Shown piece after piece: positions 22,310 to 63,296 of a stretch of 64,000 nt of DNA (positions within the stretch are counted from its first letter, which is position 1; each line of letters opens with the position of its first letter). A model generated the notes under the pieces. That model had not been told where the DNA came from. It worked only from the letters and a program-made list of their open reading frames with translations, and did not search any database. This stretch comes from Chitinophagales bacterium (GTDB lineage Bacteria > Bacteroidota > Bacteroidia > Chitinophagales > Saprospiraceae). The stretch spans positions 66,929-130,928 of the forward strand of contig JAIXKS010000039.1 in assembly GCA_026928325.1 (NCBI GenBank). The letters are read 5' to 3'. Both the position numbers and the translations under genes were made by a program.

Positions 22310-22311
22310 TT

Positions 22312-44459: not shown

Positions 44460-46014
44460 GTCCGAACCATATGTCCAGCTTAGAAGGATTAAGACCATTA
44501 TAACCTGCATCTACTGTTGATGCCTTCAATGTCCGAACCATATGTCCAGCTTAGAAGGATTAAGACTAGCACTATTTGTATATATAGGCTAATCCTATTA
44601 CGGTCCGAACCATATGTCCAGCTTAGAAGGATTAAGACTCAACCGCTACTGAAAATACATCTGGATTTTTAGTAGGTCCGAACCATATGTCCAGCTTAGA
44701 AGGATTAAGACTATCAATCTTAAATGTAGATAAAAAGAAATTATCTAAGTCCGAACCATATGTCCAGCTTAGAAGGATTAAGACAGGACAAAGGTAAACC
44801 TATCATTTTCTAATTGAATGGTCCGAACCATATGTCCAGCTTAGAAGGATTAAGACCAAGAGCAGAGATTAATGTTTGAAAAACTTCGGTTGGAGTGTCC
44901 GAACCATATGTCCAGCTTAGAAGGATTAAGACCCTCATATATGTTTTGTGTGATTAGGTCGTGCAAGTCCGAACCATATGTCCAGCTTAGAAGGATTAAG
45001 ACATATCAATTTTTATTGGTTTAAATTAGATGTTAAGTCCGAACCATATGTCCAGCTTAGAAGGATTAAGACTTTCTTTTTCTGTGAACTTTAGATCTTT
45101 CGTTGTTTTTGTCCGAACCATATGTCCAGCTTAGAAGGATTAAGACCAACTCGTTTCTAAACAGTAACATATTATAATTATTTGTCCGAACCATATGTCC
45201 AGCTTAGAAGGATTAAGACTTGGTCTGCCATCGCTATTCTGATTTTATTTTTTAAGTCCGAACCATATGTCCAGCTTAGAAGGATTAAGACGTTTGTGGG
45301 TTAATTACAGGGCTTTGTCCATCATAAGTCCGAACCATATGTCCAGCTTAGAAGGATTAAGACTTCTTAGCTGCTGGTGCAGCAAAAGGGTTAATAAAGT
45401 CCGAACCATATGTCCAGCTTAGAAGGATTAAGACTCTGCACTTTTAAAGTACAGACTGTAATGATTTTTAGTCCGAACCATATGTCCAGCTTAGAAGGAT
45501 TAAGACCAGCAAAAGGGTTATTATAGTCTGCACTTTTAAAGGTCCGAACCATATGTCCAGCTTAGAAGGATTAAGACACTTGAAATTCGTTGTCAGATAA
45601 AAAGTTTAGAAAATGTCCGAACCATATGTCCAGCTTAGAAGGATTAAGACACCCGTCAATAAGGTCGTAAAAGTCACCTATACTATTGTCCGAACCATAT
45701 GTCCAGCTTAGAAGGATTAAGACATCACTCTTCTTGATCGAAAGAGCAATGAACTCAAGTCCGAACCATATGTCCAGCTTAGAAGGATTAAGACTTCTAA
45801 TGATTTTAATAATATAACAATATATTCCTTAGGTCCGAACCATATGTCCAGCTTAGAAGGATTAAGACTTCTGTTTTGGTTACTGTTATATCATCTACAG
45901 TATATGTCCGAACCATATGTCCAGCTTAGAAGGATTAAGACGTTATATCGCTGGTAGATACTCTTCACCTTCACGGAGGTCCGAACCATATGTCCAGCTT
46001 AGAAGGATTTAAAA
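44460..46014 (+). CRISPR. CRISPR array: 22 repeats of 36 bp (GTCCGAACCATATGTCCAGCTTAGAAGGATTAAGAC), 21 spacers of 34-40 bp
   Basis: Repeats counted by hand; 21 are identical and the last (45979..46014) degenerates after nt 31. AT-rich leader at 44066..44459. The repeat 3' end ATTAAGAC resembles the canonical 8-nt crRNA 5' tag, so transcription is left to right. Confidence 0.97.
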
Positions 46015-46349: not shown

Positions 46350-47093
46350 ATGCCAAAAACCAGGTACTTACATATCGTTTTTTCTGAGCCGATACAATCG
46401 TATGATATCCCTAAGTTCAGAGCCGCAGTGATTGAAAAGACCAAGAGAGAATCCACCTTGTTTCACAATCATGTGGACGACAATGTATATATTTATAGGT
46501 ATCCATTGATACAATATAAAGTGACGGATAAGAAAGCTAGCTTGATATGTTTGGCTGAAGCGACGGAAGACATTCATTATCTATTGAAGCAGCGACAATT
46601 TGATTTTCGTATCGCAGGGCGAACCGTCAATTATGAGATCGATGATGTCCGGCTTAAATATGAATTAATTCAAACGTGGGATCAGGACTTTGTTTATAAT
46701 CTCCATCATTGGATTGCGCTCAATCAGGATAATTATCGGGAGTATCAACAATTAGCCACCTTAATCGAAAGGATTGCTTTTTTAGAACACCTTCTCGAAA
46801 AACACCTGCGGATCTTTATGGAAGCCATGGGCGCAGAAGAGGTCATACCACTTCAACTAAATATTCTCGACATCAAAGGAGAAAAGTATATAGAATATAA
46901 AAATATTTTTCATCTTACCTTTTCTCTTAATTTTAGATGTAATCTTTCTATACCCAATCATGTGGGTATCGGAAAAGGCGTAAGTGTCGGGTTTGGGCTG
47001 GTGAAAAAACTAGGAGATTCAAATGATTTATTTCATCGAAAATCGAAAAGTAAGGTAAAAAGTGATGAAGCATTCCCTATTATTGATGATTAA
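46350..47093 (+). CDS. cas6: CRISPR endoribonuclease Cas6
   Basis: 247 aa; C-terminal glycine-rich loop GIGKGVSVGFGLV, position between the array and cas10. Confidence 0.8.
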   Translation: MPKTRYLHIVFSEPIQSYDIPKFRAAVIEKTKRESTLFHNHVDDNVYIYRYPLIQYKVTDKKASLICLAEATEDIHYLLKQRQFDFRIAGRTVNYEIDDVRLKYELIQTWDQDFVYNLHHWIALNQDNYREYQQLATLIERIAFLEHLLEKHLRIFMEAMGAEEVIPLQLNILDIKGEKYIEYKNIFHLTFSLNFRCNLSIPNHVGIGKGVSVGFGLVKKLGDSNDLFHRKSKSKVKSDEAFPIIDD

Positions 47094-47299: not shown

Positions 47300-49951
47300 A
47301 TGAGTATTAAAGAAAGGCAAAGAATAGTTTTAGCAGCTTTACTTCATGATATCGGAAAGTTTTGGGAACGAGCTGATTTAAAATACGATCAATCAGAAGT
47401 AATTAAAAAAGAATTTCCTAATAAGGAATACAATCATGTGGTTCCTACATACCCAAACGGAAATCCGATGTATAGTCATGCACTATGGACACAGGCATTT
47501 TTTAATAAATACGGGATAGGGGCGCATTTGGCATTGGATGATGAAAAGGACAAAAACCTTGCTAATTTGTCAGCAAAGCATCACCGACCAACAAACCATT
47601 TGGAGGCTATAATTTCTCTTGCAGACAAATGGTCATCTTCTATTGACAGACCTGACGAAGATCAAGAAGATGAAAATTTCTATAAGGAGGTTAAAGAGAA
47701 ATGGGGAGAGCAGTTTCAGAAGAAGGTGCCATTGGAAAATATTTTTGATATTCTTAATAGAGAAACCAAGGATTACGATAGTCACTGTCTAAAATTAGCA
47801 AAACTGAATGTATTGGACAGTGATATACTATTTAGTCAAAAAACTGTACCGGACAAAAATAGTAACCTGCAGGATCAATATCATGACTTGTGGAAAGGAT
47901 TTGAAAAAGAAATAACTTCATTAATAAGCAGATGTACTGATTTTGACAGTTTTTACACATCCATTAATGACATACTTAGGAATTATACGTGGTGCATGCC
48001 TTCAGCTACCAATGTCATTCCAGCCAATGTAAGTCTTTATGAGCATTTAAAGACTACCGCTGCCATTGCATTGAGCTTATATGATTATTATAAGGATTCA
48101 AATAAAGAGATAACGATTCAGGGAGATTGGCAAAGTTCTGTAAGAGATATTGACACGCTGTTGATGGTTTGTATTGATCTTTCTGGAATTCAAAAGTTTA
48201 TATATGATATAGCTAATAAAAAAGCCGCAAAAAGTTTGAAAGGTCGTTCATTTTATCTCAATTTGTTGATGCAGCATATTGTTGATAAGGTATTAAATCA
48301 TGAAAATATTCTTTGCTATCCGACTAATGTCATTTATTCAAGTGGTGGTAAAGCATATATGATTTTGCCAAATATTGAAAGAGTAAAGGACGCATTAATC
48401 GACGTAGAAGAACAGATTCAGGCTTTCCTTTTTAAAGAATACCATGGAAAACTGTTTGCTTGTTTTGGTGCGCTTGCTTTTGGATATGAAACCTTTAAAG
48501 ATAACAATGGGATTTGGGCTAATAAGATTTTTAGTAAAGAATTAACTGGAAAAGAAAAAAATATGCTTGCTGAAGACATTTTTGATCTTGGCGATTTATG
48601 GCGTTTTGCATCCGATAGGGCTTCGGCTAAGAAAGGGCAAAAGTTCAAAAGTCAGCTAATAGCTGATTATAATTCTTTTTTTAAGCCTCAATCAATTGAT
48701 TATAATTTAAATAAATGTGCTGTAACCGGTGAAAGAGGCGCATTGTTCGATATGAATAATAATAGAGATTCTTCTGACCAAATATGGGTATTAAAACAAG
48801 TTTACGATCAAGCAGAATTAGGTGAAGCCCTTAAAAAAGGCAATTTTATTATTTCATATAAGGATATTCGGGATAAACTTAGAACCGACATTCAAGTTAG
48901 TGATGAATTTTTTGAAATCAAGGATATAGAACACATCAAAAATCTTCCGGCTTCACTATATGATAAGGCGACTATAAGTACAATGAATAATACGGATGCG
49001 ACAATAGTTGCTTCAAATGTTGGAGTTAAAACCATCTTCTATGGAGGAAATAAGCAACCTGAAAATATCAATGGCGATTATAAAACCTATGAAGACTTAG
49101 CGTTAACAGACAAAGGAAATCGTACCAAATTTGGTATCCTGCGCATGGATGTGGACAATCTGGGTCAGATATTCATTCATGGATTTAATGAAAAGGTTCA
49201 GAAAAAATCATTTGCGGCATACTCGACTTTGTCGTTTATGTTAGAAGCATTTTTCAGTGGACATATCAATCATATACATCAGTCTAATCCTGAGTTTAAA
49301 GATTATGTACAGATATTATATTCTGGAGGAGATGACTTGTTTGCTGTAGGTAGGTGGGATGCTATTATCAATTTTGCATATGAGGTCAGGAAGGAATTTG
49401 CTCGATTTGTCAGTCGGGATGACATATCCATTAGCGGTGGAATAGCTATTGTAGGAGCTAAGTACCCAATCATGAAGTCTGCCGATTTAGCGGGAGATGC
49501 TGAGAAAGCCGCAAAAGATTTCAATAACAAGGCTAAGAATGCCATTAATTTTTTCGGAGAGACTGTCAGCTGGGATAAAGAGTTTGAATTTGTTAAAGGC
49601 ATGAAAGATAGTTTTATGTACTTTAAAGATGCAACAGGTACTGCATTACTTCAAAACATACAAAAATATAAACTGATTAAAGATAACGGTATTAAATTGA
49701 ATAAGAAGGATTTAAGTTACCTTTGGCATAGTGCTTATACTTTAAAAAGAATGGCGGACAGAATTGGAGATAAAGACAAACAAGCCGTAGAATTTGTGGA
49801 ACACATAGCAGATAATATACTGTACAACAAAGAATATGGTTCTGAACGATACCTAGACTTAATGGCATTAGCAGCAAGATGGGCAGAATATTTATTAAAA
49901 GATAAAAACAAAAATTTAGAAGAGTATGAAATATCCAGAGAAGAAGTTTGA
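47300..49951 (+). CDS. cas10: type III-A Cas10/Csm1
   Basis: 883 aa; N-terminal HD nuclease motif LLHDIGKF plus HHRP...SLADKWSS; Palm/cyclase motif YSGGDDLFAVG intact. Confidence 0.93.
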   Translation: MSIKERQRIVLAALLHDIGKFWERADLKYDQSEVIKKEFPNKEYNHVVPTYPNGNPMYSHALWTQAFFNKYGIGAHLALDDEKDKNLANLSAKHHRPTNHLEAIISLADKWSSSIDRPDEDQEDENFYKEVKEKWGEQFQKKVPLENIFDILNRETKDYDSHCLKLAKLNVLDSDILFSQKTVPDKNSNLQDQYHDLWKGFEKEITSLISRCTDFDSFYTSINDILRNYTWCMPSATNVIPANVSLYEHLKTTAAIALSLYDYYKDSNKEITIQGDWQSSVRDIDTLLMVCIDLSGIQKFIYDIANKKAAKSLKGRSFYLNLLMQHIVDKVLNHENILCYPTNVIYSSGGKAYMILPNIERVKDALIDVEEQIQAFLFKEYHGKLFACFGALAFGYETFKDNNGIWANKIFSKELTGKEKNMLAEDIFDLGDLWRFASDRASAKKGQKFKSQLIADYNSFFKPQSIDYNLNKCAVTGERGALFDMNNNRDSSDQIWVLKQVYDQAELGEALKKGNFIISYKDIRDKLRTDIQVSDEFFEIKDIEHIKNLPASLYDKATISTMNNTDATIVASNVGVKTIFYGGNKQPENINGDYKTYEDLALTDKGNRTKFGILRMDVDNLGQIFIHGFNEKVQKKSFAAYSTLSFMLEAFFSGHINHIHQSNPEFKDYVQILYSGGDDLFAVGRWDAIINFAYEVRKEFARFVSRDDISISGGIAIVGAKYPIMKSADLAGDAEKAAKDFNNKAKNAINFFGETVSWDKEFEFVKGMKDSFMYFKDATGTALLQNIQKYKLIKDNGIKLNKKDLSYLWHSAYTLKRMADRIGDKDKQAVEFVEHIADNILYNKEYGSERYLDLMALAARWAEYLLKDKNKNLEEYEISREEV

Positions 49952-50360
49952 CCCAAAATGGGTTAACGGCGAATCAAAAATTGACGAACAGGTTGTTGAA
50001 TGGTTAGAATCCTTTGGAGGGTTCCTTGCTAAGGATGGTGATGATAATGGAAATGATAAACCAAAAGCCTTATCATCATCTCAAATCAGAAAATTTTTTG
50101 GTGAAGTTAAAAAAATTGAAGCTGATTTTGACAGAAAAAAAGGTGAAATCGTCCTTTTAGCGCCCAAATTGGCTTATGCAGTAGGTAGAGATTACAAAGC
50201 TCAAATGAAAAGAAGTGAATCTAAAATAAAGGAATTTCATGATGAGATTATACGAGGTCTTAACGAAGTAAAAGAAGATAAAAAGCGATATTCAAACTTC
50301 GTGAATTTAGTAGAAGGTATTGTAGCATATCATAGATATAAAGGAGGAAAAGTAAATTAA
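49926..50360 (+). CDS. csm2: type III-A small subunit Csm2
   Basis: 144 aa helical protein directly after cas10 (26-nt overlap); LSSSQIRKFFGEVKKIE motif. Confidence 0.75.
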   Translation: MKYPEKKFDPKWVNGESKIDEQVVEWLESFGGFLAKDGDDNGNDKPKALSSSQIRKFFGEVKKIEADFDRKKGEIVLLAPKLAYAVGRDYKAQMKRSESKIKEFHDEIIRGLNEVKEDKKRYSNFVNLVEGIVAYHRYKGGKVN

Positions 50361-50372
50361 AAATCTAATAAT

Positions 50373-51020
50373 ATGAAGTTAATAAAAAAACAAAAATTGA
50401 CTGGGACAATAACATTGTTATCCGGTTTGCATATTGGGGACTCAAAAGAGTCAGCTGATATTGGTGGTGTTGATTCACCAATAGTAAGACGAAAAGACAG
50501 TAACCAACCCTATATTCCAGGTAGTAGTATAAAAGGAAAAATAAGATGTTTGTTAGAACAACTTGAAGGCGCAACTGAGGTAGGTAAAGGCGGCGCAGAA
50601 ATTAATCAGCTTTTTGGTATTACAGAAATAAAAAAAGATGGAGCGATCATAAGAAAGGCTGAACTTTCTAGGTTAATTGTTCGAGATTGTTATATGACAA
50701 AGGAATCAGTTAAAAAATTTAATGATTCTAATTTAGATACAGACTTACCATTTTCTGAAATAAAATTTGAAAATACCATTGATAGAGTGAAAGGTGCAGC
50801 AAGACAAGGAGGTTTGCGAAATATTGAGAGAATACCTGCCGGTGCTGAATTCGATTTTGAATTTATTTTAAATTATTATGAGGGTGATAGTGATAATTTA
50901 AGAAAATTATTAGATAAAGGTATTTCAGCATTAAATGCCGACTATCTAGGAGGAAGTGGTACTAGAGGATATGGACATATTGAGATGAAAATTGTAAATG
51001 ACGAACCCATTGAATTATGA
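50373..51020 (+). CDS. csm3: type III-A RAMP backbone subunit Csm3
   Basis: 215 aa; GLHIGDSKESADIGGVDSPIVRRKDSNQPYIPGSSIKGKIR (catalytic Asp context present), C-terminal GGSGTRGYG. Confidence 0.9.
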   Translation: MKLIKKQKLTGTITLLSGLHIGDSKESADIGGVDSPIVRRKDSNQPYIPGSSIKGKIRCLLEQLEGATEVGKGGAEINQLFGITEIKKDGAIIRKAELSRLIVRDCYMTKESVKKFNDSNLDTDLPFSEIKFENTIDRVKGAARQGGLRNIERIPAGAEFDFEFILNYYEGDSDNLRKLLDKGISALNADYLGGSGTRGYGHIEMKIVNDEPIEL

Positions 51021-51997
51021 CCTACACCGCATACTATTTACATTTTAATACACCGCTTCATATTGGCGATTATAAACCGGAAAGTTATGAAAAGTCTGAA
51101 TCGTTTTTACGGAGCGATACCATTGTAGCTGCGATTATATCAGCATGGGCTAAGTCGGGGCATGAAGATTGGATAGGTGATGGAGACTTACCTTTTACTA
51201 TAAGTAGTGCTTTCCCGTTTTTTTGTGCTAATGGTAATGAAGTGATGTTTTTTCCGCGGCTAAAGAGTAGCTTTAAAATAAAAGACCACGACTCAACTTT
51301 GTCAAAAGCAATAAAAAAGATAACCTGGCTCGATCAGTATTATTTTGAAAAAGTGATAAATAATGAAGATGTCTCTGAAAAGTTGTCTGATTTTATACGA
51401 GGAGATTTTTTGTCAAAAATAGCATTGCCGCAAGGAGGTTTTATGCAAAAACAAGTCAGCGAACGAGTGCAAATACCAAGAGAACGCAATGAAGACAATC
51501 AAAGTGAACCGTTTTATATGGAAAGGATATACTTTGAAAAGGGAGGTTTGTATTTTCTAGCTACCGGCGATGGATTAGATCGTTTAGAAAAAGCATTAAA
51601 CTTATTGCAGTATGAAGGCTTTGGCACAGATAGAAGCATCGGCAATGGTTTCTTTGAATGGAATAAGGGTGAGGTGGAGCTATCGCTACCCGATAATACT
51701 TCTTACGCTGCATCTTTGGGACTATATGTACCTGAAAGCAGGGATAAACTCACAGCCGAACTGGATGATAATACCTCCTATGACCTCATCAAACGTGGTG
51801 GCTGGATCACTACGGATGGTTATCAGTCATTTGAGAAGAACAGCATTTATATGTTTACAGAAGGATCTGTATTTAAAAAACATGAGCGTATTGACGGAAA
51901 AGGTAGTATCGACTTGTCTCCTTCTGATATTCCGAAAATACTCGATCACAAGATTTACAGAAGTGGCAAAACCATTTTTATACCTGTTAAACTTTAA
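51017..51997 (+). CDS. csm4: type III-A RAMP subunit Csm4
   Basis: 326 aa; N-terminal YLHFNTPLHIGD...LRSDTIVAAIISAW and G-rich loop GFGTDRSIGNG. Confidence 0.85.
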   Translation: MTYTAYYLHFNTPLHIGDYKPESYEKSESFLRSDTIVAAIISAWAKSGHEDWIGDGDLPFTISSAFPFFCANGNEVMFFPRLKSSFKIKDHDSTLSKAIKKITWLDQYYFEKVINNEDVSEKLSDFIRGDFLSKIALPQGGFMQKQVSERVQIPRERNEDNQSEPFYMERIYFEKGGLYFLATGDGLDRLEKALNLLQYEGFGTDRSIGNGFFEWNKGEVELSLPDNTSYAASLGLYVPESRDKLTAELDDNTSYDLIKRGGWITTDGYQSFEKNSIYMFTEGSVFKKHERIDGKGSIDLSPSDIPKILDHKIYRSGKTIFIPVKL

Positions 51998-52000
51998 GAG

Positions 52001-53452
52001 ATGACCAACATTGGCAAGACAATAATAAAAGGCAAAGTCAGGATTGTAACTCCGGTACATATCGGTGGAGCTCAAGAGAAACACCTAATGAGTGGCTTAG
52101 ATTATTTGAATAAAGATAATAAAATATTTTTCTTTGACGATAAGAAACTAATTAAGGAGTTTGGAATTGATAATTACAGCAATGCTTTGAGTGAAAACGG
52201 ATTAAGAGAACTTATCAAAAATAGACATAGAGATATTGAAGATTTTTCAAATAAACAAGCTACCATTACAGGCGTAGTTGGATTAGATATCAAAGCGAAT
52301 ATCAAAAATGCGTTAAGTGGTAAACCAATCATACCTGGAAGTTCGCTGAAAGGCTCACTGAGGTCGGTACTTTATAATCTAGCAGAAGGTGGCAGAAACA
52401 ACCGTAATGTATTCGGAAGAATAGAGGTAGATATGTTCCGTTTCTTGATAGTAGGGGATATTGAGTTTAATAGATCGACATATATAAACACAAAGATTTA
52501 TAATCTTAGGACTGCACGAGAAAATGGAGGTGGGTGGAAAAATGCATGGCAAAATAATACGACTGAACATTTTAATGAAAATGGATTCACCACGGCTCAT
52601 GAAGTCATCGAGAAAGATGATTTTTCAGATTTTGAGATAATAATTAATAATAAGGCGTTTGAAAAAGCGTTGGTAGAAGGGAAAGTTATGGCGCCTGCAA
52701 ATGTTAAAAATATTTTTATCGGCCAAGCAGACTTATTTGAAATTATCAAAGAATACACAAAGAATTATCTTAAAGCAGAAATAGCGTTCTTCGAAAAGTA
52801 TAAAGGACAACATTCAGACGTTATTATTGCAGAGCTAAATAGACTTTTGGCACTTAATGAAAACTCGCCATTGCTCAGGCTTGGCCTCGGTTCTGGCTTT
52901 CATGCTATGACGGGAGATACGCTTCATGATTCGCATTTGATAGACAGTATTCATATGATTGGGAATCGTTCAAGAGGAACATTAAACAGATATGACTCTG
53001 CAAAATCTCGCAAATTAGCATTTGAAAAAATTGGGGAGGAATTCAAGTTTTATCCAATGGGATTTATTCAGCTCTTTTCAGATGAAGATTGGATTAAGGA
53101 TGCAGATAAATTGATAAAGGAGCAAGAAGCATCGAAAATACAAGAGCAAGCTAAAATAGCAGAAGAAAAGGCACGTCAAGAAAAGGAACAAGCGTTAAAA
53201 GAAGAAGCAATGAAGCCTAAAATGGTGGAATTATCGTTTTTAGGCAACAGACCGAAATGGGTAGATGCAAAAGTTGTAGCTCAAAGAGGTACTCAACTAA
53301 TATTTAAACCTTTTATTTTAGGTTTTGAAGATAAAGAATTTGATTTGAGGTATGGGATTGGAATGGATGAAGGTACGATCATTCAAGTAGAATGCACGAA
53401 ACAAGGAAATAATATTAGATTTCAAGGGTCTCCACGTAAAAAACAGGGATAG
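52001..53452 (+). CDS. csm5: type III-A RAMP subunit Csm5 with ~120-aa C-terminal extension
   Basis: 483 aa; VRIVTPVHIGG, IIPGSSLKGSLRS, LGLGSGF RAMP motifs up to ~aa 358, then a Lys/Glu-rich helix and a ~75-aa extra domain. Confidence 0.75.
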   Translation: MTNIGKTIIKGKVRIVTPVHIGGAQEKHLMSGLDYLNKDNKIFFFDDKKLIKEFGIDNYSNALSENGLRELIKNRHRDIEDFSNKQATITGVVGLDIKANIKNALSGKPIIPGSSLKGSLRSVLYNLAEGGRNNRNVFGRIEVDMFRFLIVGDIEFNRSTYINTKIYNLRTARENGGGWKNAWQNNTTEHFNENGFTTAHEVIEKDDFSDFEIIINNKAFEKALVEGKVMAPANVKNIFIGQADLFEIIKEYTKNYLKAEIAFFEKYKGQHSDVIIAELNRLLALNENSPLLRLGLGSGFHAMTGDTLHDSHLIDSIHMIGNRSRGTLNRYDSAKSRKLAFEKIGEEFKFYPMGFIQLFSDEDWIKDADKLIKEQEASKIQEQAKIAEEKARQEKEQALKEEAMKPKMVELSFLGNRPKWVDAKVVAQRGTQLIFKPFILGFEDKEFDLRYGIGMDEGTIIQVECTKQGNNIRFQGSPRKKQG

Positions 53453-53499
53453 GGAACTATATTTGTTTTTCATGCGTTTTACATTCAAAATTCATGCTT

Positions 53500-53751
53500 A
53501 TGCCGATCTTACAAATTCGTAATCTACCACAAAAGCTTTATGATGAGTTGAAAGCTTCAGCGGATAAATCTCGGCGGTCACTTACTCAGGAAGCGATCGT
53601 TTTACTTGAAAAGGGGCTTCAACTTTCTTCTATCAATACGACTAGCGATAAAAATCAATTGCTAAAGCGTTTATTGGAAGATGTCAATAAGCCGTCTTTT
53701 TGTAGTGAAGACGCTACTGAATGGATTAGAAATGATCGAGATAGCAGATGA
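53500..53751 (+). CDS. ribbon-helix-helix antitoxin (VapB/FitA-like)
   Basis: MPILQIRNLPQKLYDELKASADKSRRSLTQEAIVLLEKGL, an Arc/MetJ-type RHH; 4-nt overlap with the PIN gene. Confidence 0.7.
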   Translation: MPILQIRNLPQKLYDELKASADKSRRSLTQEAIVLLEKGLQLSSINTTSDKNQLLKRLLEDVNKPSFCSEDATEWIRNDRDSR

Positions 53752-54143
53752 ATATCGTTTTAGATACAAGTGCTGCTGTGCGTGTTGTTTTAGATCGAGA
53801 TATTCATCTTATTAAAATCTTACAGCAAGCTGAACACATATTTGTGCCTCATTTGTTTTTTGCAGAAGTAGGTAATGTGTTTCTAAAATATTATCAGTTT
53901 CAGAATATGCATCCAGAAGCTTGTAAATTGTATATGATGCAATGTCGGCAGCTCATTACTGATGTCGTAGATGAATACACTTTTAATGAAGAAGTGTTTG
54001 ATATAGCGACTAAAAATCAGTTGAGTTTTTATGATGCAATATACTTGGCTATGGCAAAAAAGTTGGCAGCTAATCTTCTTACCGAAGATAAAAAATTGAA
54101 CGATGTTGCATCAAAACTTGGTTTAGTAGCCAAGGAGGTTTAA
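53748..54143 (+). CDS. vapC: PIN-domain toxin VapC
   Basis: 131 aa; IVLDTSA (first acidic residue), FAEVGNV, SFYDAIYLAMA, LLTEDKKL. Confidence 0.85.
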   Translation: MNIVLDTSAAVRVVLDRDIHLIKILQQAEHIFVPHLFFAEVGNVFLKYYQFQNMHPEACKLYMMQCRQLITDVVDEYTFNEEVFDIATKNQLSFYDAIYLAMAKKLAANLLTEDKKLNDVASKLGLVAKEV

Positions 54144-54190: not shown

Positions 54191-55018
54191 ATGAAAATTT
54201 TATTAACAAATCTCGGTAATCGAAACATCACTTTTCAAGGCAAAACGTATAATGAATGGGATATAAGCAATCAAAATCACAAGCATTTTGTCAATTTTGC
54301 TAATTGGACTAAAAAGCTCAATGATGATTTTGAGAAAGAAAAGGCTTTTTTAGATATTAATATCATCAATCCTATTATCAATCAAAAGGAAAATTATGAT
54401 TATATCGTACTCTATTACACCGACCAAAGTGATTATGAGACAAGAACAGATCAAGATACAATTCATGAAGCTGCTATCATTAAAAGAATACTGATTGACC
54501 GATATGAGTATATAGAAGATAGAATCATAACTATCGCTGTAAAATCAAAAGTCATAGATAATGGAGGATTACTTAAATTTTATAGATCTGAATTGACACG
54601 CATTAAAAAGAAGTATGATGCTCCATTTATCACTATTTGTGATGCTGGAGGAACAGCTCAACAAAAAATGGCATTAAAAGTCATCGCAGAATATGTATTT
54701 GATGCGAGCCAATATGAAATCTTGTATGTCGAAAAGAACTCATTGATTACGGATGTCAATGTGAATGAATATAGAAAAGTGATAAATTCAGAGCAGGCTA
54801 TTAGTTTGATAAAACATGGTGAATTTGGAGCTGCCGCAGAGCTTTTGGATTATAAGGAAATACTTAATTTTCAAAAAGCCCAGAAATATGATTGGAAAGG
54901 GAAGGTTATGGCTCATGTTATTTATAGGTTTAATCAAAATAAGAATGAGGCAAAACATATTTTAGGAAATTTGCAAGTTTCTAACGAACTATTGAAAAAT
55001 TATATGGCGGATTCAAGT
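54191..55018 (+). pseudogene. csm6: csm6-type CARF-HEPN effector, 5' fragment (CARF domain), truncated by IS insertion
   Basis: Rossmann-like MKILLTNLGNRN start and CARF loop ICDAGGTAQQKMAL. The frame runs 11 codons into the IS and stops. Confidence 0.75.
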
Positions 55019-55993
55019 CATAAATGCAACTTTTCCGTCATTATTAATTAAATGCAAATGTACTTGATTTGGAGATAAAAATCCAAATCTTTTTCTTGGT
55101 CTATTGTTTAGTTTATCTTCTACATATTCGATATCATCATTTGTGATTAAATTAAAGTCGTAATTCTTTGGGAAATACTGTCTTACCAACCCATTAAAGT
55201 TTTCATTTGCTCCTCTTTCCCAACTATGATAAGGTCTTGCGAAGAAATAATCTATCTCCAATTCTGTTGCGATTTCTTTGTGTAAAGCAAATTCTTTTCC
55301 ATTATCGGAGGTAATGGTTTTCAAAAAGGACTTCCATTCTGTAAGGATTTCAATTGCCTTTTGCTTGGTCTCTTCCGATGACTTTGACTCTAATAATGCC
55401 ATTTTTGCTTTTCCTGTTACCCTGTCATTTGCCGTCAATATTGCCCTTTTGTGATTTTTCCCAATTACTAAATCTATTTCCACATCTCCTATTCTGACTT
55501 TTTCTTCTACTATTTTAGGTCGATTTTCAATACTTACTTTATCAGGAATTTGCCCCCGTTTATCCTTTGAAGCTCCTCTTTTACGGTATCTTTTGCCCTT
55601 TGTCCGCAAGTGTGTGTAAAGATTGCCGCCCTGTCTTTTGTCTGACCAAATATGTTGGTAAATTCGCTCTATTGACACGCAATCGTCTCCTTGAAGTTTA
55701 GAAAATCCTACGACTTGCTCCGGACTGTAATCTTGTCGGAGTAATTCTTCTACATTTTCCTGAATTTCAGCGGTAAATCTGATTTTCTTCTTTTTTGTTT
55801 TATGCCTGTTAGCACATTTTCTTTCCGCCAATTCGGCTTTGTACTTACCACTTCTTTGGTCACAATTCCTTTTCAGTTCTCTACTCACAACTGACTTATC
55901 CCGATTAATTCTTTTAGCTATTTCACTTTGTGAAAAACCTTCTTCTTTTAATACTTGAATTGTGTATCTTTGTGCTACGGTTAAATGTCCCAT
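55013..55993 (-). CDS. IS30-family DDE transposase
   Basis: 326 aa; N-terminal HTH (GFSQSEIAKRINRDKSVVSRELKRN), DDE region ...DLVIG...TSDNGKEF...ERGANENFNGLVRQYFPK. The stop codon lies in the left TCAAGT repeat. Confidence 0.9.
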   Translation of the reverse strand: MGHLTVAQRYTIQVLKEEGFSQSEIAKRINRDKSVVSRELKRNCDQRSGKYKAELAERKCANRHKTKKKKIRFTAEIQENVEELLRQDYSPEQVVGFSKLQGDDCVSIERIYQHIWSDKRQGGNLYTHLRTKGKRYRKRGASKDKRGQIPDKVSIENRPKIVEEKVRIGDVEIDLVIGKNHKRAILTANDRVTGKAKMALLESKSSEETKQKAIEILTEWKSFLKTITSDNGKEFALHKEIATELEIDYFFARPYHSWERGANENFNGLVRQYFPKNYDFNLITNDDIEYVEDKLNNRPRKRFGFLSPNQVHLHLINNDGKVAFMT

Positions 55994-56138
55994 TTATTGC
56001 GAATTTTGGACGAGGAGCAAAATGAGGAAATTTTACCATTCAGAAAAGGAGAGGAGAGTTTTTCTCTTCTCTTTTCTGAAAAAAATTATCCCTTATTTCT
56101 TTCCTACCAAAAGTTGCATTTATTAGTTGAACTCAAGT
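55013..56138 (-). mobile_element. IS30-family insertion sequence (coordinates include both flanking TCAAGT direct repeats)
   Basis: Inverted repeats ATAAATGCAACTTTT (55020..55034) and AAAAGTTGCATTTAT (56109..56123); TCAAGT at 55013..55018 and 56133..56138; single transposase ORF. Confidence 0.85.
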
Positions 56139-56750
56139 ATCCATGAAAATGCTTTTTCAAATAATACAGAATTGGAGGAGATGTTTGGAAGTGATTGGAT
56201 TGATATCACAGAAAAACTCTATAAAAGTATATTTTATTACAATCGTAAAAATTTTAGTCTATCGATACTTTCATTTTCTCAATTTTATGAATATTTCTTA
56301 GAGAAAATTATCCCAGTGATTTTACCTATCGAAATTTATGGAAAGACTAATGCCCAAAATGCTGAACAATATTTTAACTTTAATGGCCTTTTTGAAGAAT
56401 ATTATGCTGATTATTTACGGAAAAGACCCGAATTTAAGCCGAAAATAGAGAGTGTCAATTCTGGAATAATGGTTGTTAAAGCTTTGACAAAAGGTTCTGC
56501 TAAAGACTTTACAAAGATGATTTCTCCGTATATTGATTTTACAGATGATTGTATTTACGGGAAAGCTTTACTTAATGTAACTAGAAACCAAATTGCACAT
56601 CAAGGTAAGTTTATTTCAGAAAGTGATATTTCAAAGAAGCTGAGTTATTATCCGAATTTATTAAGTCGTACAGCTGAGATTTTTCAGTTGACTAGGGCTG
56701 ATTTGTTTAGCGATCTTGGAGATTTGTTAGAAAACAATTTAAGGAATTGA
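56133..56750 (+). pseudogene. csm6: csm6-type CARF-HEPN effector, 3' fragment (HEPN domain)
   Basis: HEPN R-x4-H motif in LLNVTRNQIAHQG. Reading frame is continuous with 54191..55018 once 55019..56138 is removed. Confidence 0.75.
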
Positions 56751-56753
56751 CTT

Positions 56754-58520
56754 ATGGCTGTTCTCCTTGGCATAACAGATTCCAAAGACATTACATTAGT
56801 TCAAGCAATATTGCTTTTAAAAAGTAAAGGAATAGTAATTGATAATGTTAAATATATTAGGACTGGAGGACTAGAAATTGATCGTAAGGCTGAAATGTTT
56901 TACAATAACTTTAAAATCAATTTTGTAGTTTCTTCACTTCCTCAAGGAGGCAAATTACAAAAAGAGGATGATTACCTTGTACAAGAAGATGAGTTGTTTA
57001 AATGGTATTTAGAATCAACTCATGGCTTCGATAAAATATATGTTTTTATTGGTGGAGGGCATAAGCTGCATTCATTGGCCTTGCAAAAATGTGCATTTTT
57101 ATTTGGAGCTGAAGAGGTTTTCCACATGTTTATAGATGTTCCTAGAGAACATGAGCCTAAATCAATTTCCGATATCGAAATTGCTATTAAAAACAATCAG
57201 ATTCTTTATGCGAACATTGGTAAGCATTTGGCTTGGCCGGCTATAAAAAAATTGGTTCAACAAAATATCACAGCACCTAATCTAATAAGGGAAGTTATTG
57301 GAATAATCGGCAGTCGTGCAGTGTCACAAGTTAATGAATTGCCATTTGAATCTTTACAGTTGTTACCAGCTATGGCAATGCAATGGCTACAAGGTAGGTT
57401 AGTGGAGCGTGATTATGATTTTATTAAAATGCTACCTAAAGTAGAGTTGCATTGTCATCTTGGTGGGTTTGCTTCTGACGGAGATGCTCTAGATATCGTT
57501 AGAGCAAGCTATGAAGGGAATATTCCGTTACGAGAAAAGCATGTTATTTCGTATCCAGAGAATTGGCCTCTTCCTAAAAAGCCCATTGAATTAGACAAAT
57601 ATATGAATTTAGGTGATAACACTGGATCTTATATTCTACATAATAAAGGATGCCTTGAAAAACAAATTGAACTTTTATACAGTCATTTTTTAGAACAAAA
57701 CATTGGCTATGCAGAAGTTAGATGTTCTCCTTATAATTATGCTAGTGATAAATATTCCGGATTTGAAATTGTACAAATCATTATTGATAAGTTTAATGAG
57801 CTCATGGACCTTGCTAAAGAACATGAATTTTGGTGTCATGTCAATTTATTAATTATTGCTACCCGGACAGACCTAAAAAATACGCAAAAAATTCAAAATC
57901 ATTTAGAGTTGGCTACTGTAGCAGAATCTAAAAGTAGTACTAAGGGATTGTGTAAAATTGTTGGCGTTGATTTAGCAGGCTTTGAGCATCCTTCGACAAG
58001 GGCATCCTACTATACCAATCTTTTTGATCCAATCCATAGAAAGGGAATTGCTTTAACGATCCATGCAGGTGAGAATGATGAATCAGAGGCTATTTGGGAT
58101 GCCGTATTTAGATTGAATACGAGAAGGATTGGTCATGGACTACACCTTTATCAAGATGCTAATCTTTTAAAGTCAGTCATAAATCGAGGAATCGGCGTTG
58201 AAATGTGTCCCTACGCCAATTATCAAATCAAAGGATACGCTCCTATGGAAAATCAAAGCAAAGTTTATCCTTTACTTGATTATTTGAATCAAGGAGCTCA
58301 AGTTACTGTAAATACTGATAATATAGGTATAAGTTCAGCATCTCTCACAGATAATATAATCCTTTTGTCGAAATTGAACCCAGATATTACTAGAATTCAG
58401 ATATTGCAATTGGTTAGAAATGGAATCAACCAAGCATTTATTGATGTCAGTTTGCGTAATAAATTTATCGAAATTTATAATGAACGAATTTTTAAGTTGA
58501 TTCTAGAATTTACGCTATAA
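56754..58520 (+). CDS. cad1: CARF domain-adenosine deaminase fusion (Cad1-type CRISPR ancillary effector)
   Basis: 588 aa. The N-terminal ~215 aa are Rossmann-like with the loop VFIGGGHKLHSLAL. The C-terminal deaminase has VELHCHLGG, GVDLAGFE, LTIHAGE, RIGHGLHL, EMCPYANY, VNTDN. Confidence 0.85.
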   Translation: MAVLLGITDSKDITLVQAILLLKSKGIVIDNVKYIRTGGLEIDRKAEMFYNNFKINFVVSSLPQGGKLQKEDDYLVQEDELFKWYLESTHGFDKIYVFIGGGHKLHSLALQKCAFLFGAEEVFHMFIDVPREHEPKSISDIEIAIKNNQILYANIGKHLAWPAIKKLVQQNITAPNLIREVIGIIGSRAVSQVNELPFESLQLLPAMAMQWLQGRLVERDYDFIKMLPKVELHCHLGGFASDGDALDIVRASYEGNIPLREKHVISYPENWPLPKKPIELDKYMNLGDNTGSYILHNKGCLEKQIELLYSHFLEQNIGYAEVRCSPYNYASDKYSGFEIVQIIIDKFNELMDLAKEHEFWCHVNLLIIATRTDLKNTQKIQNHLELATVAESKSSTKGLCKIVGVDLAGFEHPSTRASYYTNLFDPIHRKGIALTIHAGENDESEAIWDAVFRLNTRRIGHGLHLYQDANLLKSVINRGIGVEMCPYANYQIKGYAPMENQSKVYPLLDYLNQGAQVTVNTDNIGISSASLTDNIILLSKLNPDITRIQILQLVRNGINQAFIDVSLRNKFIEIYNERIFKLILEFTL

Positions 58521-58540: not shown

Positions 58541-59548
58541 TTAATCACTATTATAATATCCCGTCATCCTAGCCGTTTTTTCAGCCATGATGTTTACCAA
58601 TTCGGCAGGTTCTAATACGATAAGGTCGGGGCCGTAGCTCAATAGTCGGTGTATAATTTCATAAGTGATGTAAATGTCTAACGAGAAGCGCGACTTTTGT
58701 TCTGTTTGTTCGACCAATCTCTGTGAGGGATGTATCGGTTTAGAACGAAGATACTTGCTGAGTAAGGGTATCACCTCAAATTCAATATGCTGCACTTGGG
58801 CGTCTTGAATCCTGGTTACGCCATACATGTGTTTAAACCAATTGGCGTGGTTGAAATCTGGAGGTATAAAATAATCGGTTAAAGAAGGCTGAATATCTGC
58901 CATCCGATCTAATGCCAGATTGATGATGACTTCCTTACTATGTAGATATCCGTATAGATACCACCGATTGTTATATTCATGGATAAAGGCTGGTGATAGG
59001 GTATGCGTATCGGGCTCGCCGTCAAATGGTTCGTACTTGATCCGGAGTGTTTGTCGGTTTTTGATATGCTTATACACGGTGTCCAACCATCTTTGCCCAG
59101 CTTCATTCAGGCTATGTTCTAGGTAAATGGATGGCTCTTGATTGATATCGATGCTGAGATTAAGTTTGTCTTCAAGGACAGATAAGGTGTGATGGATATC
59201 TAACAATTTTTCATTTTTAGTCAGTTGCTTGAGCATCAATAAGGCATCTTTGACTTTATCAGCATTGATATTATTTAAGGGAACTTTAAAAATACTAAAC
59301 TTTTTATTGGTGTAGTAATATCCCTTATGTTTGTTATAGGCAATCGGTGCTTCGTACCCTAAGATTCCGGAACGCATTCTTTGGATATCATAGGCAATGG
59401 TTCGCTTCGATGGAGCTATCAGATTTTTATTCCAATCTGCTGCAGCAAGAGCGCAAGCTTCTGATAAGTCTTGCCAATGATTAACGGAGTTCTTTCTTAA
59501 TCGTTGGTCAATAATTTGGTATCTCAATTGTGCATTGATAGAACTCAT
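58541..59548 (-). CDS. WYL-domain transcriptional regulator (wHTH-WYL-WCX)
   Basis: 335 aa; N-terminal wHTH, WYL core LRIKYEPF...HEYNNRWYLYGY, C-terminal ...LIVLEPAELV. Confidence 0.85.
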   Translation of the reverse strand: MSSINAQLRYQIIDQRLRKNSVNHWQDLSEACALAAADWNKNLIAPSKRTIAYDIQRMRSGILGYEAPIAYNKHKGYYYTNKKFSIFKVPLNNINADKVKDALLMLKQLTKNEKLLDIHHTLSVLEDKLNLSIDINQEPSIYLEHSLNEAGQRWLDTVYKHIKNRQTLRIKYEPFDGEPDTHTLSPAFIHEYNNRWYLYGYLHSKEVIINLALDRMADIQPSLTDYFIPPDFNHANWFKHMYGVTRIQDAQVQHIEFEVIPLLSKYLRSKPIHPSQRLVEQTEQKSRFSLDIYITYEIIHRLLSYGPDLIVLEPAELVNIMAEKTARMTGYYNSD

Positions 59549-59838: not shown

Positions 59839-60759
59839 ATGAAGTACTTCATTGCTTTTATTATCACTGCAATTGTCCTAGTGACGATGGTTAATTATTA
59901 TGAAGGATCGCAATCTCAGATTAAACTATTGGATGATAAGGTCCAGAGCATGAATGAATTTAATTCTTCGCTTAAGGATAGTGTGCAAACGCTCAAACAC
60001 ACCATAGATACGCTAAATAACATGTTTGATGCATCTAAACCTGTCGATTTGGTGGCCTTGAGTAAATACCTTTCTGCTTCTGTCTTTCCCATTCATGTGT
60101 ATTTGGTCATTGAGGGAAGTGAAGAAGTAGAGCAGGAAGACGAAAACGGATATGTGTACACAGAAACATCTATTTTAGTAGATACTGTCTTGGCTTTTGG
60201 TACTACGTTTTGTTTTGGGCAAAGTGGTGTTTTTTTGACGAATTATCATGTCTTTCCGCCTAATACTGTGGATGCATTCATCGAGGATAATGAGGGTAGG
60301 TTTCATCCGGTCACTTATGTTATTGCAGCTAATAAAGACTTGGACTATGTTTTATTTACTTGTCCGGATTTGTGGGTCAGCCCATTACCTATAGCAAGGT
60401 ATCTGCCCGAACAAGGAGCAGATATTTTTACGATGGGTAACCCTCTGAATTTTAATTATACTTTATCGCGAGGCATTGTATCTGGATGGTTAGCAAATCA
60501 TTCTTACATCCAATCGGATATTCCCATCAATAGAGGCAGTAGCGGAGGACCATTAGTGAATAAAAATGGAGAAGTTGTTGGTGTTGCTTTTGCCAAATTA
60601 GAAAGCGCTGAAAATTTTAGTTTTGGAATTAACATTCATCACATTGCTGAAGATATTATAGCTGTTATAGAATCAAATACTTTTCTGCATTCAAATTTTG
60701 ACGAAAATTCATTTAAGTTGGTTAGTGATGCTGAATTTCTACAGTTCTTACGACAATAG
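59839..60759 (+). CDS. membrane-anchored trypsin-like (S1/DegP-type) serine protease
   Basis: 306 aa; N-terminal TM helix, coiled coil, catalytic triad contexts LTNYHVF, DLDYVLF, NRGSSGGPLVNKNGEVVGV. Confidence 0.75.
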   Translation: MKYFIAFIITAIVLVTMVNYYEGSQSQIKLLDDKVQSMNEFNSSLKDSVQTLKHTIDTLNNMFDASKPVDLVALSKYLSASVFPIHVYLVIEGSEEVEQEDENGYVYTETSILVDTVLAFGTTFCFGQSGVFLTNYHVFPPNTVDAFIEDNEGRFHPVTYVIAANKDLDYVLFTCPDLWVSPLPIARYLPEQGADIFTMGNPLNFNYTLSRGIVSGWLANHSYIQSDIPINRGSSGGPLVNKNGEVVGVAFAKLESAENFSFGINIHHIAEDIIAVIESNTFLHSNFDENSFKLVSDAEFLQFLRQ

Positions 60760-60834: not shown

Positions 60835-61848
60835 ATGAGAATATTTATCAATACTTACGGAACTTCTTTGAAGATGCAAGATGGTTTGCTTTCAATTAAA
60901 TACGAAGACAAAATCAATAAAGTTCCCATAGGAAAAGTTAAAACCATTTATCTTACAAAAAGCGTTCATTTATCTACGGATGTACTTTATGCCTGCCTCG
61001 AACAAGGCATAGATTTAATGATTACGGAGCGGAGTGGTGCTCCGGTGGGAAGATTATGGAATAATAGGTTCGGATCTATATCTACTATCCGAAAAAACCA
61101 ATTGGACTTTGCAGCAAGTGGTCATGTTACTTCGTGGGTTATCGACCAACTTTCAGAAAAAATTGAAAACCAAATTGATTTACTTTTTTGCTTATTGACA
61201 TTGGATGAACCCGATGAAACAGAGATTAATCGAGTAGTCGAAAAAATGAGATCAATTATTATTAGGATGTCCGAATCTAAAGAGGATCATATCAGCGAAG
61301 CGGCAGCAAGATTACGAGCTTTGGAAGGCCAAGCCGCTAAACTCTATTTTTCGTGTATCAATAGACATTTGCCATTTAAATATCAATTTTCAGGTAGAAG
61401 CAGACATCCCGCCTTGGATATGGTCAACTCGATGTTAAATTATGTATATGGTATATTATACGGACATATAGAATCCGCATTGATAAAAGCTGGGTTAGAT
61501 CCTTTTATTGGCCTCTTTCATCGGGATGAATACAATAGACCGGTTCTTACTTATGATGTAATCGAACCATTTAGACCTTGGGCTGATTGGACAGTTTTTC
61601 ATTTGTGCACTAACGAGGTACTAGATGATGTTCATTTTCAGATAGAAAATGGACAATATTGGCTCCAAGGGGATGCTAAAAGGATATTGATTCAGCATTT
61701 TTCGGACTTTTTTGATGAAGTAATCGATTATAAGGGAAATCGGTTTTCGCGGATGATTCATTTGGATAAGGCAGCTCAACAATTAGCTAGTTTTATTCAA
61801 AATAATGCGCCAGGCCCTGAATCAGGATTTATAACGTCACACAAATAA
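60835..61848 (+). CDS. cas1: CRISPR integrase Cas1
   Basis: 337 aa; LEGQAAKLYF, NSMLNYVYGILY, GLFHRDEYNRPVLTYDVIEPFRP motifs. Confidence 0.9.
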   Translation: MRIFINTYGTSLKMQDGLLSIKYEDKINKVPIGKVKTIYLTKSVHLSTDVLYACLEQGIDLMITERSGAPVGRLWNNRFGSISTIRKNQLDFAASGHVTSWVIDQLSEKIENQIDLLFCLLTLDEPDETEINRVVEKMRSIIIRMSESKEDHISEAAARLRALEGQAAKLYFSCINRHLPFKYQFSGRSRHPALDMVNSMLNYVYGILYGHIESALIKAGLDPFIGLFHRDEYNRPVLTYDVIEPFRPWADWTVFHLCTNEVLDDVHFQIENGQYWLQGDAKRILIQHFSDFFDEVIDYKGNRFSRMIHLDKAAQQLASFIQNNAPGPESGFITSHK

Positions 61849-61859
61849 TTATAAGATAG

Positions 61860-62837
61860 ATGCCAAATATACTTTTATCATACGGCACCAATTGTAAGGA
61901 TAACAAATCTTCGCTTTCTATCATGGATTTAGTGTCCTTGTATGAATTGATTATTGCACCGGACGAACACAATTTAGTTACCACAACACAAAACTTGAGG
62001 TCTGTGCTGAAATATTCTCAAGAGCGATATCGTTACATGAAAACATCACTTCCTTTTTTCTCTTGTTCGCATTTTGATCCGCCATTGAGAGGCATTCAAA
62101 ATTTTGTTAGAGCTGAAGGACTTGTCATTGATTTAGATATGAAAGCACCTTTAGACCAGGAGTTGATCCGTAAGTTTAAAGAGGATGAAAGGATAGCTTT
62201 GGGTTATATTTCTCCAAGTAATATGGGCATAAAATTAGTATTTGTTTTAGATGAGCCAGTTAGAGATGCACAAGTATATAGAGCGTTATATCTAAAATTT
62301 TCTAGTGATTTTGCAATGCAATATCACTTGGCTGACTGCTTGGATCAAAAAAACTGTGACGTTAGCCGTATTAGTTTTATATGCCATGACTCGCAAGCAT
62401 GGTTCAATTCTGATGCTATCCCATTGACAATCAATCATTGGATATCGGAAGATTCCATAAGTGTTCCAATGGATACTCCAGATGAGATGGTGGCTGAAAA
62501 ACAAAATATTCCTGAAACTGCCTACAAAAAGATTTTAGAATTATTAGATACACGTCCTAAAACTGTTAAAGCGGTTGTACCTCTTATGCCGGAAATATCG
62601 CAGATCATGGATATTATATCTGAAGAATTGGACATCTATGAAATCCGTGTCGATCATGTCGAAAGCATTCAGTATGGAGCAAAACTAAGGTTGGCGAAGG
62701 ATGTACAAAAGGCGGAAATCAATGTGTATTATGGAAAGCAAGGTTATCGGGTAGTAACAAGTCCACGAAAAGGAACTGACCATCAGCTCAATGAGGTAGC
62801 CAGATTTGTCTTACAATCCTTATTGGATAAATATTAA
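61860..62837 (+). CDS. archaeo-eukaryotic primase superfamily Prim-Pol (BT4734/VirE-N-like), CRISPR-associated (CAPP-type)
   Basis: 325 aa between cas1 and cas2; AEP motif I LVIDLDMK (DxD), motif II region SPSNMGIKLVFVL, motif III region NCDVSRISFICHD. Confidence 0.7.
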   Translation: MPNILLSYGTNCKDNKSSLSIMDLVSLYELIIAPDEHNLVTTTQNLRSVLKYSQERYRYMKTSLPFFSCSHFDPPLRGIQNFVRAEGLVIDLDMKAPLDQELIRKFKEDERIALGYISPSNMGIKLVFVLDEPVRDAQVYRALYLKFSSDFAMQYHLADCLDQKNCDVSRISFICHDSQAWFNSDAIPLTINHWISEDSISVPMDTPDEMVAEKQNIPETAYKKILELLDTRPKTVKAVVPLMPEISQIMDIISEELDIYEIRVDHVESIQYGAKLRLAKDVQKAEINVYYGKQGYRVVTSPRKGTDHQLNEVARFVLQSLLDKY

Positions 62838-62852
62838 AATTGAATAAAAATT

Positions 62853-63296
62853 ATGAGCAAATACCCTTCATTTAATACCATTCGAGATGTAGAAGTCAAT
62901 GATGAAAAGTTAGCTTCGTTGGCAGAATTAAATATAGACCAAAAAATCAATACCATCATGGGCTGGCTTGCCCGTCAAAGCCGCATCAAATCTAACCTTA
63001 TGTTGTATATGATTATGTATGATATAGAAAACAATAAAATCCGTACTCATATCGCCAAATATCTGATAAAAAAGGGTTGTCTTAGAATCCAAAAATCAGT
63101 TTATCTTGCAAAAAGTAGTCCTGTAATTATGAAAGAAATAACGGAAACACTCAAAGAAATTAATGATATTTATGAAAATCAAGATAGTATTTTTGTACTG
63201 CCTGTTCCGGAAGAAAAGTTCAATAATATTACGGTGATTGGCCAAAATGTTGAATTTGAAATTGTAACCCAACCCAAGATTGTTTTATTTTTTTAA
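62853..63296 (+). CDS. cas2: CRISPR-associated Cas2 with N-terminal extension
   Basis: Cas2 core LYMIMYDIENNKIRTHIAKYLIKKGCLRIQKSVYL starts near aa 50 of 147. An internal Met (MGWLAR) could be the true start. Confidence 0.8.
   Translation: MSKYPSFNTIRDVEVNDEKLASLAELNIDQKINTIMGWLARQSRIKSNLMLYMIMYDIENNKIRTHIAKYLIKKGCLRIQKSVYLAKSSPVIMKEITETLKEINDIYENQDSIFVLPVPEEKFNNITVIGQNVEFEIVTQPKIVLFF

Follow-up and report, generated by a model that had tools for sequence, protein, structure and literature searches.

A Cad1-type CARF-adenosine deaminase fusion beside an insertion-split csm6 in a CRISPR locus of type III-A from a Chitinophagales bacterium

The cad1 gene and its family

The 64,000-nucleotide (nt) stretch analysed here, referred to below as the window, comes from a Chitinophagales bacterium (assembly GCA_026928325.1, contig JAIXKS010000039.1, positions 66,929 to 130,928 of the forward strand) and contains a CRISPR locus of type III-A in which a gene for a 588-residue protein, cad1, lies downstream of the csm genes (Table 1). 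The locus type had been proposed from the sequence beforehand, and cas6, cas10, csm2 to csm5 and a 22-repeat array are all present, with both the GGDD and the HD motif of Cas10 intact. Directly upstream of cad1 is csm6, which is interrupted by an insertion sequence (IS). The cad1 reading frame is undamaged, and the chance expectation for an open reading frame (ORF) of its length is ~2e-14 when both strands of the window are considered at 37% G+C. The product is laid out as a CARF domain (approximately amino acids (aa) 1-160), a linker (approximately aa 160-225) and a deaminase domain (aa 228-573), and all seven motifs quoted in the original prediction were located within it. The protein is 100% identical to LC107_08200, publicly annotated as a "hypothetical protein" and encoded on a 164,785-bp contig of a Chitinophagales metagenome-assembled genome. 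The csm6 fragments, including the 5′ fragment LC107_08185, bear the same label.

The gene had been proposed to encode a Cad1-type fusion of a CARF domain to an adenosine deaminase, and sequence searches, PADLOC, the predicted fold and individual residues agree on that identity: the window ORF is a full-length orthologue of Cad1/CAAD, an already characterised family. Structures of Bacteroidales Cad1 (BbCad1; 9C67, E = 3.3e-134 across aa 54-583), Thermoanaerobaculum aquaticum Cad1 (TaqCad1; 9EBT/9UBL, E = 1e-121 across aa 14-562) and a further CAAD (8Z3K, E = 6e-113) were all matched by the window protein, as were crystal chains of the Cad1 CARF domain alone (9C68/9C69, E = 2e-11). The PADLOC model CARF5--CARF_ADA was matched with E = 2e-125, and the Pfam family A_deaminase covers aa 228-573. 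A homologue search with the window protein returned 748 proteins at E <= 1e-20, and relatives occur in named genomes including Flavihumibacter profundi and Membranihabitans marinus.

An AlphaFold2 model of the window protein, built from a 92-sequence alignment (pLDDT 92.3, pTM 0.86), predicts an alternating beta/alpha, Rossmann-like fold for aa 2-158 with pLDDT >90. The top Foldseek match of this model was 9C77_B, Cad1 in complex with cA4 and ATP (TM-score 0.80/0.78, E = 4.7e-61, ~600 aligned columns), and the superposition spans both domains; the next 37 matches were all Cad1/CAAD chains. Canonical adenosine deaminases superposed on the C-terminal half only. Profile and structure searches of the two halves, as had been suggested, thus identify the N-terminus as CARF and the C-terminus as adenosine deaminase.

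The deaminase half invites a second explanation, a housekeeping adenosine deaminase of purine salvage that bears an unrelated N-terminal extension and lies beside a CRISPR locus by chance, since both Pfam A_deaminase and NCBIfam TIGR01430 match the C-terminal domain. However, TIGR01430 scores only 154 against a cut-off of 216.55, and every one of the NF0068xx adenosine deaminase models falls far short of its own threshold. Moreover, the N-terminal domain shares homology with the CARF domain of Cad1, the gene shows conserved synteny with the csm genes, and the window protein contains Gly237 and Asn523, changes that abolish the use of adenosine (PMC12669630). The scores, these two residues, the CARF homology and the synteny effectively refute a housekeeping enzyme, whose probability we regard as negligible.

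For the active site of the Cad1 orthologue, residues were mapped with P0058 (BbCad1 minus its first 13 residues) and P0120 (a close full-length relative) as references. BbCad1 residues H243, H245, M294, H448, E451, H472, D533 and N534 correspond to H233, H235, M284, H437, E440, H461, D522 and N523 of the window protein and are all conserved. Across the family alignment H233, H235, H437, E440, H461 and D522 are invariant, and so are the columns of N523 and of G237 in HCHLGG; the asparagine is shared by 119/119 homologues aligned at that column, BbCad1 included. The original prediction correctly read TDN where canonical adenosine deaminases have TDD. Its suggestion that this is notable or possibly inactivating does not stand, given the same asparagine in every aligned homologue, the active BbCad1 among them. 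Compared with mouse adenosine deaminase, Cad1 and its close homologues have Asn in place of Asp296 and Gly in place of Asp19 (PMC12669630), and both of these Cad1-defining changes are found in the window protein, as Asn523 and Gly237 respectively. In TaqCad1 the equivalent Asn549 is an ATP-binding residue, and the substitution N549D, alone or together with G264D, abolishes ATP deamination (PMC12669630). Because the asparagine is invariant and its reversion to aspartate eliminates ATP deamination, TDN is a family signature accompanying ATP as the substrate rather than a defect or peculiarity of the window copy.

Taken together, the homology, the fold, the locus context and the conserved residues of catalysis and ligand binding documented here support a model in which the window ORF is a Cad1 effector that acts by cyclic oligoadenylate (cOA)-triggered deamination of ATP to ITP and is the sole intact CARF effector of its locus, a reading to which we assign a probability of about 0.9. 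In this model the Csm complex would bind a complementary invader transcript, whereupon the palm domains of Cas10, with GGDD intact, would synthesise cyclic oligoadenylates. Binding of cA4 and/or cA6 to the dimeric N-terminal CARF domain of Cad1 would then activate the metal-dependent deaminase domain to convert ATP to ITP, which would arrest growth of the infected cell and block phage spread. The logic from target RNA through cOA to ATP deamination, as originally predicted, has been demonstrated experimentally for the family, for which cA4/cA6 binding, hexamers, ATP-to-ITP conversion, growth arrest, phage defence and, in some members, ring-nuclease activity have been reported (PMC11645235, PMC12669630, PMC12993439). 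By analogy with these characterised homologues, the window protein would share their ligand, hexameric assembly, chemistry and growth-arrest outcome.

Table 1. Features of cad1, csm6 and the surrounding locus (window coordinates; aa, residues of the encoded protein)
Feature	Position	Strand	Details
cad1 (CARF-adenosine deaminase, 588 aa)	56754..58520	+	ATG start, no frameshift or internal stop
CARF motif I region T8-D9-S10-K11-D12	56775..56789	+	subclade-specific, stands in for the usual L-G-x-S-p
CARF motif II VFIGGGHKLHSLAL	aa 97-110, 57042..57083	+	contains K104
VELHCHLGG	aa 230-238, 57441..57467	+	metal-binding HxH (H233, H235) plus G237
GVDLAGFE	aa 404-411	+	deaminase motif
LTIHAGE	aa 434-440	+	deaminase motif
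RIGHGLHL	aa 458-465	+	deaminase motif
EMCPYANY	aa 483-490	+	deaminase motif
VNTDN	aa 519-523, 58308..58322	+	D522 metal ligand, N523 Cad1-specific ATP-binding Asn (PMC12669630)
csm6 5′ part	54191..55018	+	276 native codons (complete CARF and part of helical linker)
IS30-family insertion sequence	55012..56131	-	~1.1 kb; exact ends uncertain by ~8 nt
IS30-family transposase ORF	55013-55993	-	NF033563, E = 2.9e-83
IS inverted repeats	55012-55034 and 56109-56131		23 nt, 91% complementary
IS hairpin	56040-56079		-21.6 kcal/mol, z = -3.0
csm6 3′ part	56139..56750	+	HEPN part at 56127-56750, RNQIAH intact
CRISPR array	44460..46014		22 repeats (36 nt each), 21 spacers (34-40 nt)
cas6 (Cas6b type)	46350..47093	+	
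cas10/csm1	47300..49951	+	HD at aa 16, GGDD at aa 676-679
csm2, csm3, csm4, csm5	49926..53452	+	csm5 at 52001-53452
RHH-PIN pair	53494-54143		RHH 53494-53751 overlapping PIN 53748-54143
WYL/WCX-domain protein	58541..59548	-	likely CRISPR-associated regulator; adjoins cad1 in relatives too
Membrane-anchored trypsin-like protease	59839-60759		Trypsin_2, E = 4e-23
cas1, PrimPol-like gene, cas2	60835-63296		PrimPol-like gene 61860-62837; cas2 ORF 62853-63296
Type II restriction-modification cassette	20643-23391		HTH controller, cytosine-5 DNA methyltransferase (E = 2e-79), restriction endonuclease (E = 5e-34)

Divergence of the CARF domain

Several observations weigh against assigning the window protein the behaviour of characterised Cad1 enzymes. 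The CARF domain is only ~26% identical to that of BbCad1, compared with 49% for the deaminase domain, and the BbCad1 CARF residues H11, S12, D67 and N130 are changed to S10, K11, K67 and E134, respectively. At the hexamer interface W349, essential in BbCad1, is replaced by F337, which is still aromatic and occupies a position that varies within the subclade described below. Two residues of the inter-domain ATP pocket remain basic (BbCad1 R161 and K589, window K165 and R578), while the third, K165 of BbCad1, loses its basic side chain and is Q169 in the window; the columns of this pocket are poorly conserved family-wide. Lastly, expression of cad1 is uncertain, as the IS separates the gene from the operon promoter.

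Within the CARF pocket three BbCad1 residues are kept (K104 as K104, T35 as T37 and D128 as D128), and the window K104 that aligns with BbCad1 K104 corresponds by motif position to K106 of TaqCad1. In place of the canonical motif I of CARF domains (G-x-S/T following strand 1), the window protein has T8-D9-S10-K11. While the canonical motif has been linked to cOA degradation, BbCad1 has the serine and yet does not cleave cOA (PMC11645235). The divergence of motif I touches ring-nuclease activity and the details of the ligand and leaves family membership unaffected. Because of this divergence in the CARF domain, ligand preference and ring-nuclease behaviour are not confidently transferable from the characterised enzymes.

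The divergence is shared with close relatives. Some 30 homologues from Chitinophagales/Saprospiraceae-type bacteria, the window protein among them, form a group whose members are 42-62% identical among themselves and <=48% identical to other homologues, and the 30 members of this subclade were compared with 90 other listed homologues. Motif I reads LLGiTD.KDI in the subclade and LL.slGtSpaiVPEA in the other 90. The motif-I serine is replaced by lysine in 25/30 subclade members and N130 by glutamate in 27/30. A precomputed match to PF09623, the ring-nuclease CARF family, exists for one of the 30 and for 69 of the 90.

One explanation of this pattern is that the subclade pocket has been re-tooled, such that it recognises other cOA species or has a ring-nuclease activity unlike that of the characterised Cad1 enzymes. 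Such a change is favoured by the subclade-specific motif I with its Ser-to-Lys and N130-to-Glu replacements, by a CARF domain that has diverged from BbCad1 far beyond the deaminase domain, and by the 29 subclade proteins that are without a PF09623 match; the characterised enzymes themselves also vary in cA4/cA6 preference and ring-nuclease activity (PMC11645235, PMC12669630). However, the motif-II lysine, T37 and D128 are all retained, the predicted CARF fold superposes on that of ligand-bound Cad1, and BbCad1 tolerates single and several double mutations of its pocket (PMC11645235), so specificity may persist. We therefore consider re-tooling rather unlikely, and a modest lead rather than a finding, because pocket mutations are tolerated in BbCad1 and the characterised enzymes already differ. 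Membership of a subclade with a diverged CARF motif I is the only mildly new point of the analysis.

The split csm6 gene and expression of cad1

The disruption of csm6 by an IS, noted in the original prediction, is borne out: an IS30-family element splits the CARF domain from the HEPN domain, which no longer reside in one polypeptide. The 5′ ORF at present reads into the IS and ends at 55051. Excision of 1120 nt rebuilds a 479-aa CARF-HEPN ORF whose product aligns end to end, across the junction, with the intact 474-aa homologue P0121 at 64% identity, and 22 intact Csm6 homologues of 460-492 aa were found with the rebuilt protein. This database search was used to place the junction; the genes at the csm6 position of the related loci L001 and L002 had been considered for the purpose and were rejected, as they encode CARF-HEPN proteins but are ~20% identical and gave no BLASTP match at E <= 1e-3. 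A direct repeat, TCAAGT, is found at 55013-55018 and 56133-56138 and is asymmetric, leaving the target duplication ambiguous. Further lesions are absent from both csm6 fragments, and the insertion looks recent because neither fragment has decayed. No second copy of the IS was found in the window. In the stretch of the IS that separates the right inverted repeat from the transposase start there is also a very stable hairpin, which may regulate transposase expression.

The spacing of 3 nt between csm6 and cad1 was confirmed, the stop codon of the csm6 fragment ending at 56750 and the cad1 ATG starting at 56754 on the same plus strand. In six related loci csm6 adjoins cad1, and it is directly upstream in the three closest relatives whose sequences were inspected (L001, L004 and L020). 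The junctions are 4-nt overlaps in L020 (ATGA) and L001 (GTGA), and gaps of ~10 nt in L004 and L002. This tight unit in relatives suggests that cad1 has no promoter of its own and that, judging from gene spacing, it normally shares one transcription and translation unit with csm6.

It is therefore conceivable that cad1, although intact, is silenced or strongly reduced by a polar effect of the IS, in which case defence would proceed only via the HD DNase of Cas10 and RNA cleavage by Csm3, leaving the locus without a functional cOA effector. The overlaps and gaps of at most ~10 nt in relatives leave no space for a cad1 promoter, and the 1.1-kb element, with its transposase gene antisense, separates cad1 from the rest of the operon. 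The interval from the IS to cad1 yielded no convincing promoter: in a scan for sigma-70-like promoters that could drive cad1 after the insertion, hits were at chance level (25 found, 28.4 expected), and there was no full Bacteroidetes -33/-7 promoter in the 44-64 kb region. Against this, an isolated Bacteroidetes-type -7 motif, TATCTTTG, lies inside the IS at 55965 on the plus strand and points towards cad1. Read-through from the operon is also possible, as no canonical terminator was found on the plus strand of the IS; the hairpin described above is stable but is followed by an A-run on this strand and so was rejected as a canonical terminator. Also against silencing, the cad1 frame is unbroken by stops or frameshifts and every functional residue is preserved. 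The csm6 fragments are undecayed too, and a recent insertion leaves a short time for selection either way. Polar silencing is thus a minority possibility, though one to be taken seriously.

Because Csm6 is split by the IS30-family insertion, Cad1 is the one CARF effector of the locus that is still intact as a gene. A PADLOC scan of the window ORFs of >=100 aa identified no other CARF or SAVED protein. The trypsin-like protease was considered as a second cOA effector and rejected, as its N-terminal part consists of a transmembrane helix and a short region and has no CARF/SAVED match. The earlier statement that Cad1 is likely the only functional sensor accordingly holds within the window and is overstated beyond it; it is further tempered by a 5′ csm6 fragment that still encodes a whole CARF domain and by the potential effect of the IS on cad1 expression.

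The 5′ fragment could also play a part of its own. A truncated Csm6 of 276 native residues, if still made, might dampen activation of Cad1, either as a sponge for cOA or as a ring nuclease. The fragment retains its start and the full CARF domain and sits upstream of the IS within the operon. Ring-nuclease CARF domains have been documented for Csm6/Csx1, as has competition for cA4 among CARF proteins (PMC12669630, PMC12993439 and references therein). However, truncated proteins are often unstable, and both expression and ring-nuclease activity of this Csm6 family, with 24 detectable homologues and no Pfam domain, are conjectural, so the chance of such a role appears slim. A combined version, in which the subclade pocket has been re-tooled for another ligand preference or manner of signal termination and truncated Csm6 tunes Cad1 as a CARF-only decoy or ring nuclease, likewise seems improbable.

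Neighbouring genes and comparison with known systems

Several neighbouring features merit a record. A VapBC-like pair, with an RHH gene overlapping a PIN gene, lies between csm5 and csm6 and is not there in L001 and L002. Csm5, at 483 aa, clearly exceeds the 364-position TIGR01899 model, which matches only its first ~125 residues; in the relatives Csm5 has 505-547 aa. The trypsin-like protease, with its N-terminal transmembrane helix, is encoded between the WYL gene and cas1. At this slot L002 and L003 hold a gene for a Piwi-domain protein (prokaryotic Argonaute; L002 6170-8119), which marks this part of the CRISPR locus as a position of variable cargo. A PrimPol-like gene (PADLOC PrimPol, Pfam BT4734-like_N) lies between cas1 and cas2 and is kept in L002 and L003, an arrangement resembling CRISPR-associated primase-polymerase adaptation modules. 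Homology of the 147-aa cas2 product to Cas2 models begins at residue 50; the true start may be further downstream, or the protein may have an N-terminal extension. Elsewhere in the window is a type II restriction-modification cassette.

Pairs of csm6 and cad1, Cad1-only loci and IS insertions in cas loci are all familiar. The result carries little weight beyond annotation and leaves the picture of type III CRISPR signalling unchanged: the hypothetical proteins of cad1 and of the csm6 fragments can now be named as Cad1/CAAD and an IS-disrupted Csm6. The locus is nevertheless a natural case of a Cad1-plus-RNase pair newly stripped of its RNase, which could serve for comparison with the published idea of effector cooperation, and the diverged motif I of the subclade offers a defined sequence set for how ligand preference and ring-nuclease activity are encoded.

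Homologues of Cad1 were already listed in earlier CARF censuses. More than 70% of Cad1 homologues occur in genomes with type III systems (PMC11645235, PMC12993439). In 76% of 121 CAAD loci a further CARF effector is present, for example Csm6, Csx1 or Card1 (PMC11645235, PMC12993439). Loci with Cad1 only and loci with Cad1 plus an RNase have both been described.

The closest comparison is with BbCad1 (HAJ98955.1; PDB 9C67, 9C6C, 9C6F, 9C77, 9CDB; Baca et al. 2024, PMC11645235), which forms a hexamer as a trimer of dimers through its deaminase domains with stacking of W349 (PMC11645235). The window protein resembles it in two-domain architecture (588 versus 600 aa), in all deaminase active-site residues including TDN, in the CARF residues K104, T35 and D128, and in a type III-A setting directly downstream of csm genes. 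It differs in overall identity (~40%, and ~26% in the CARF domain), in motif I (T-D-S-K versus G-H-S), in the replacements N130 to E134, D67 to K67 and W349 to F337, and in a shorter linker. Moreover, the window locus has a (broken) csm6 upstream, whereas the BbCad1 locus is Cad1-only.

TaqCad1, or TaqCAAD (PDB 9EBT, 9OF1, 9OFB-E, 9MMW, 9UBL; PMC12669630, PMC12993439), is also a CARF-deaminase fusion with the asparagine of TDN and the glycine of HCHLGG, and shares its locus with a CARF-HEPN RNase. Unlike the window protein, to whose model it is ~36% identical, it comes from a thermophile, has a canonical motif I and acts as a ring nuclease on cA4; its locus is type III-B with Csx1 downstream, while the window has Csm6 upstream. 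LngCAAD (PDB 8Z3K, 8Z3P, 8Z3R, 8Z40; Li et al. 2025, cited in PMC12669630) is another member of the family, a hexameric ATP deaminase activated by cOA, with a TM-score of ~0.73 to the window protein in addition to the sequence match given above. Its locus reportedly pairs CAAD with a Nudix hydrolase (PMC12993439), whereas the window genes flanking cad1 have no Pfam/PADLOC family match beyond WYL and the trypsin-like protease. RdrB of the RADAR defence system did not turn up as a match here. It has the adenosine deaminase fold and, as discussed in PMC11645235, an antiviral poisoning of the cell with (d)ITP in common with Cad1, but it is an ATP/dATP deaminase that is without a CARF domain, is not controlled by cOA and acts in a large complex with the ATPase RdrA.

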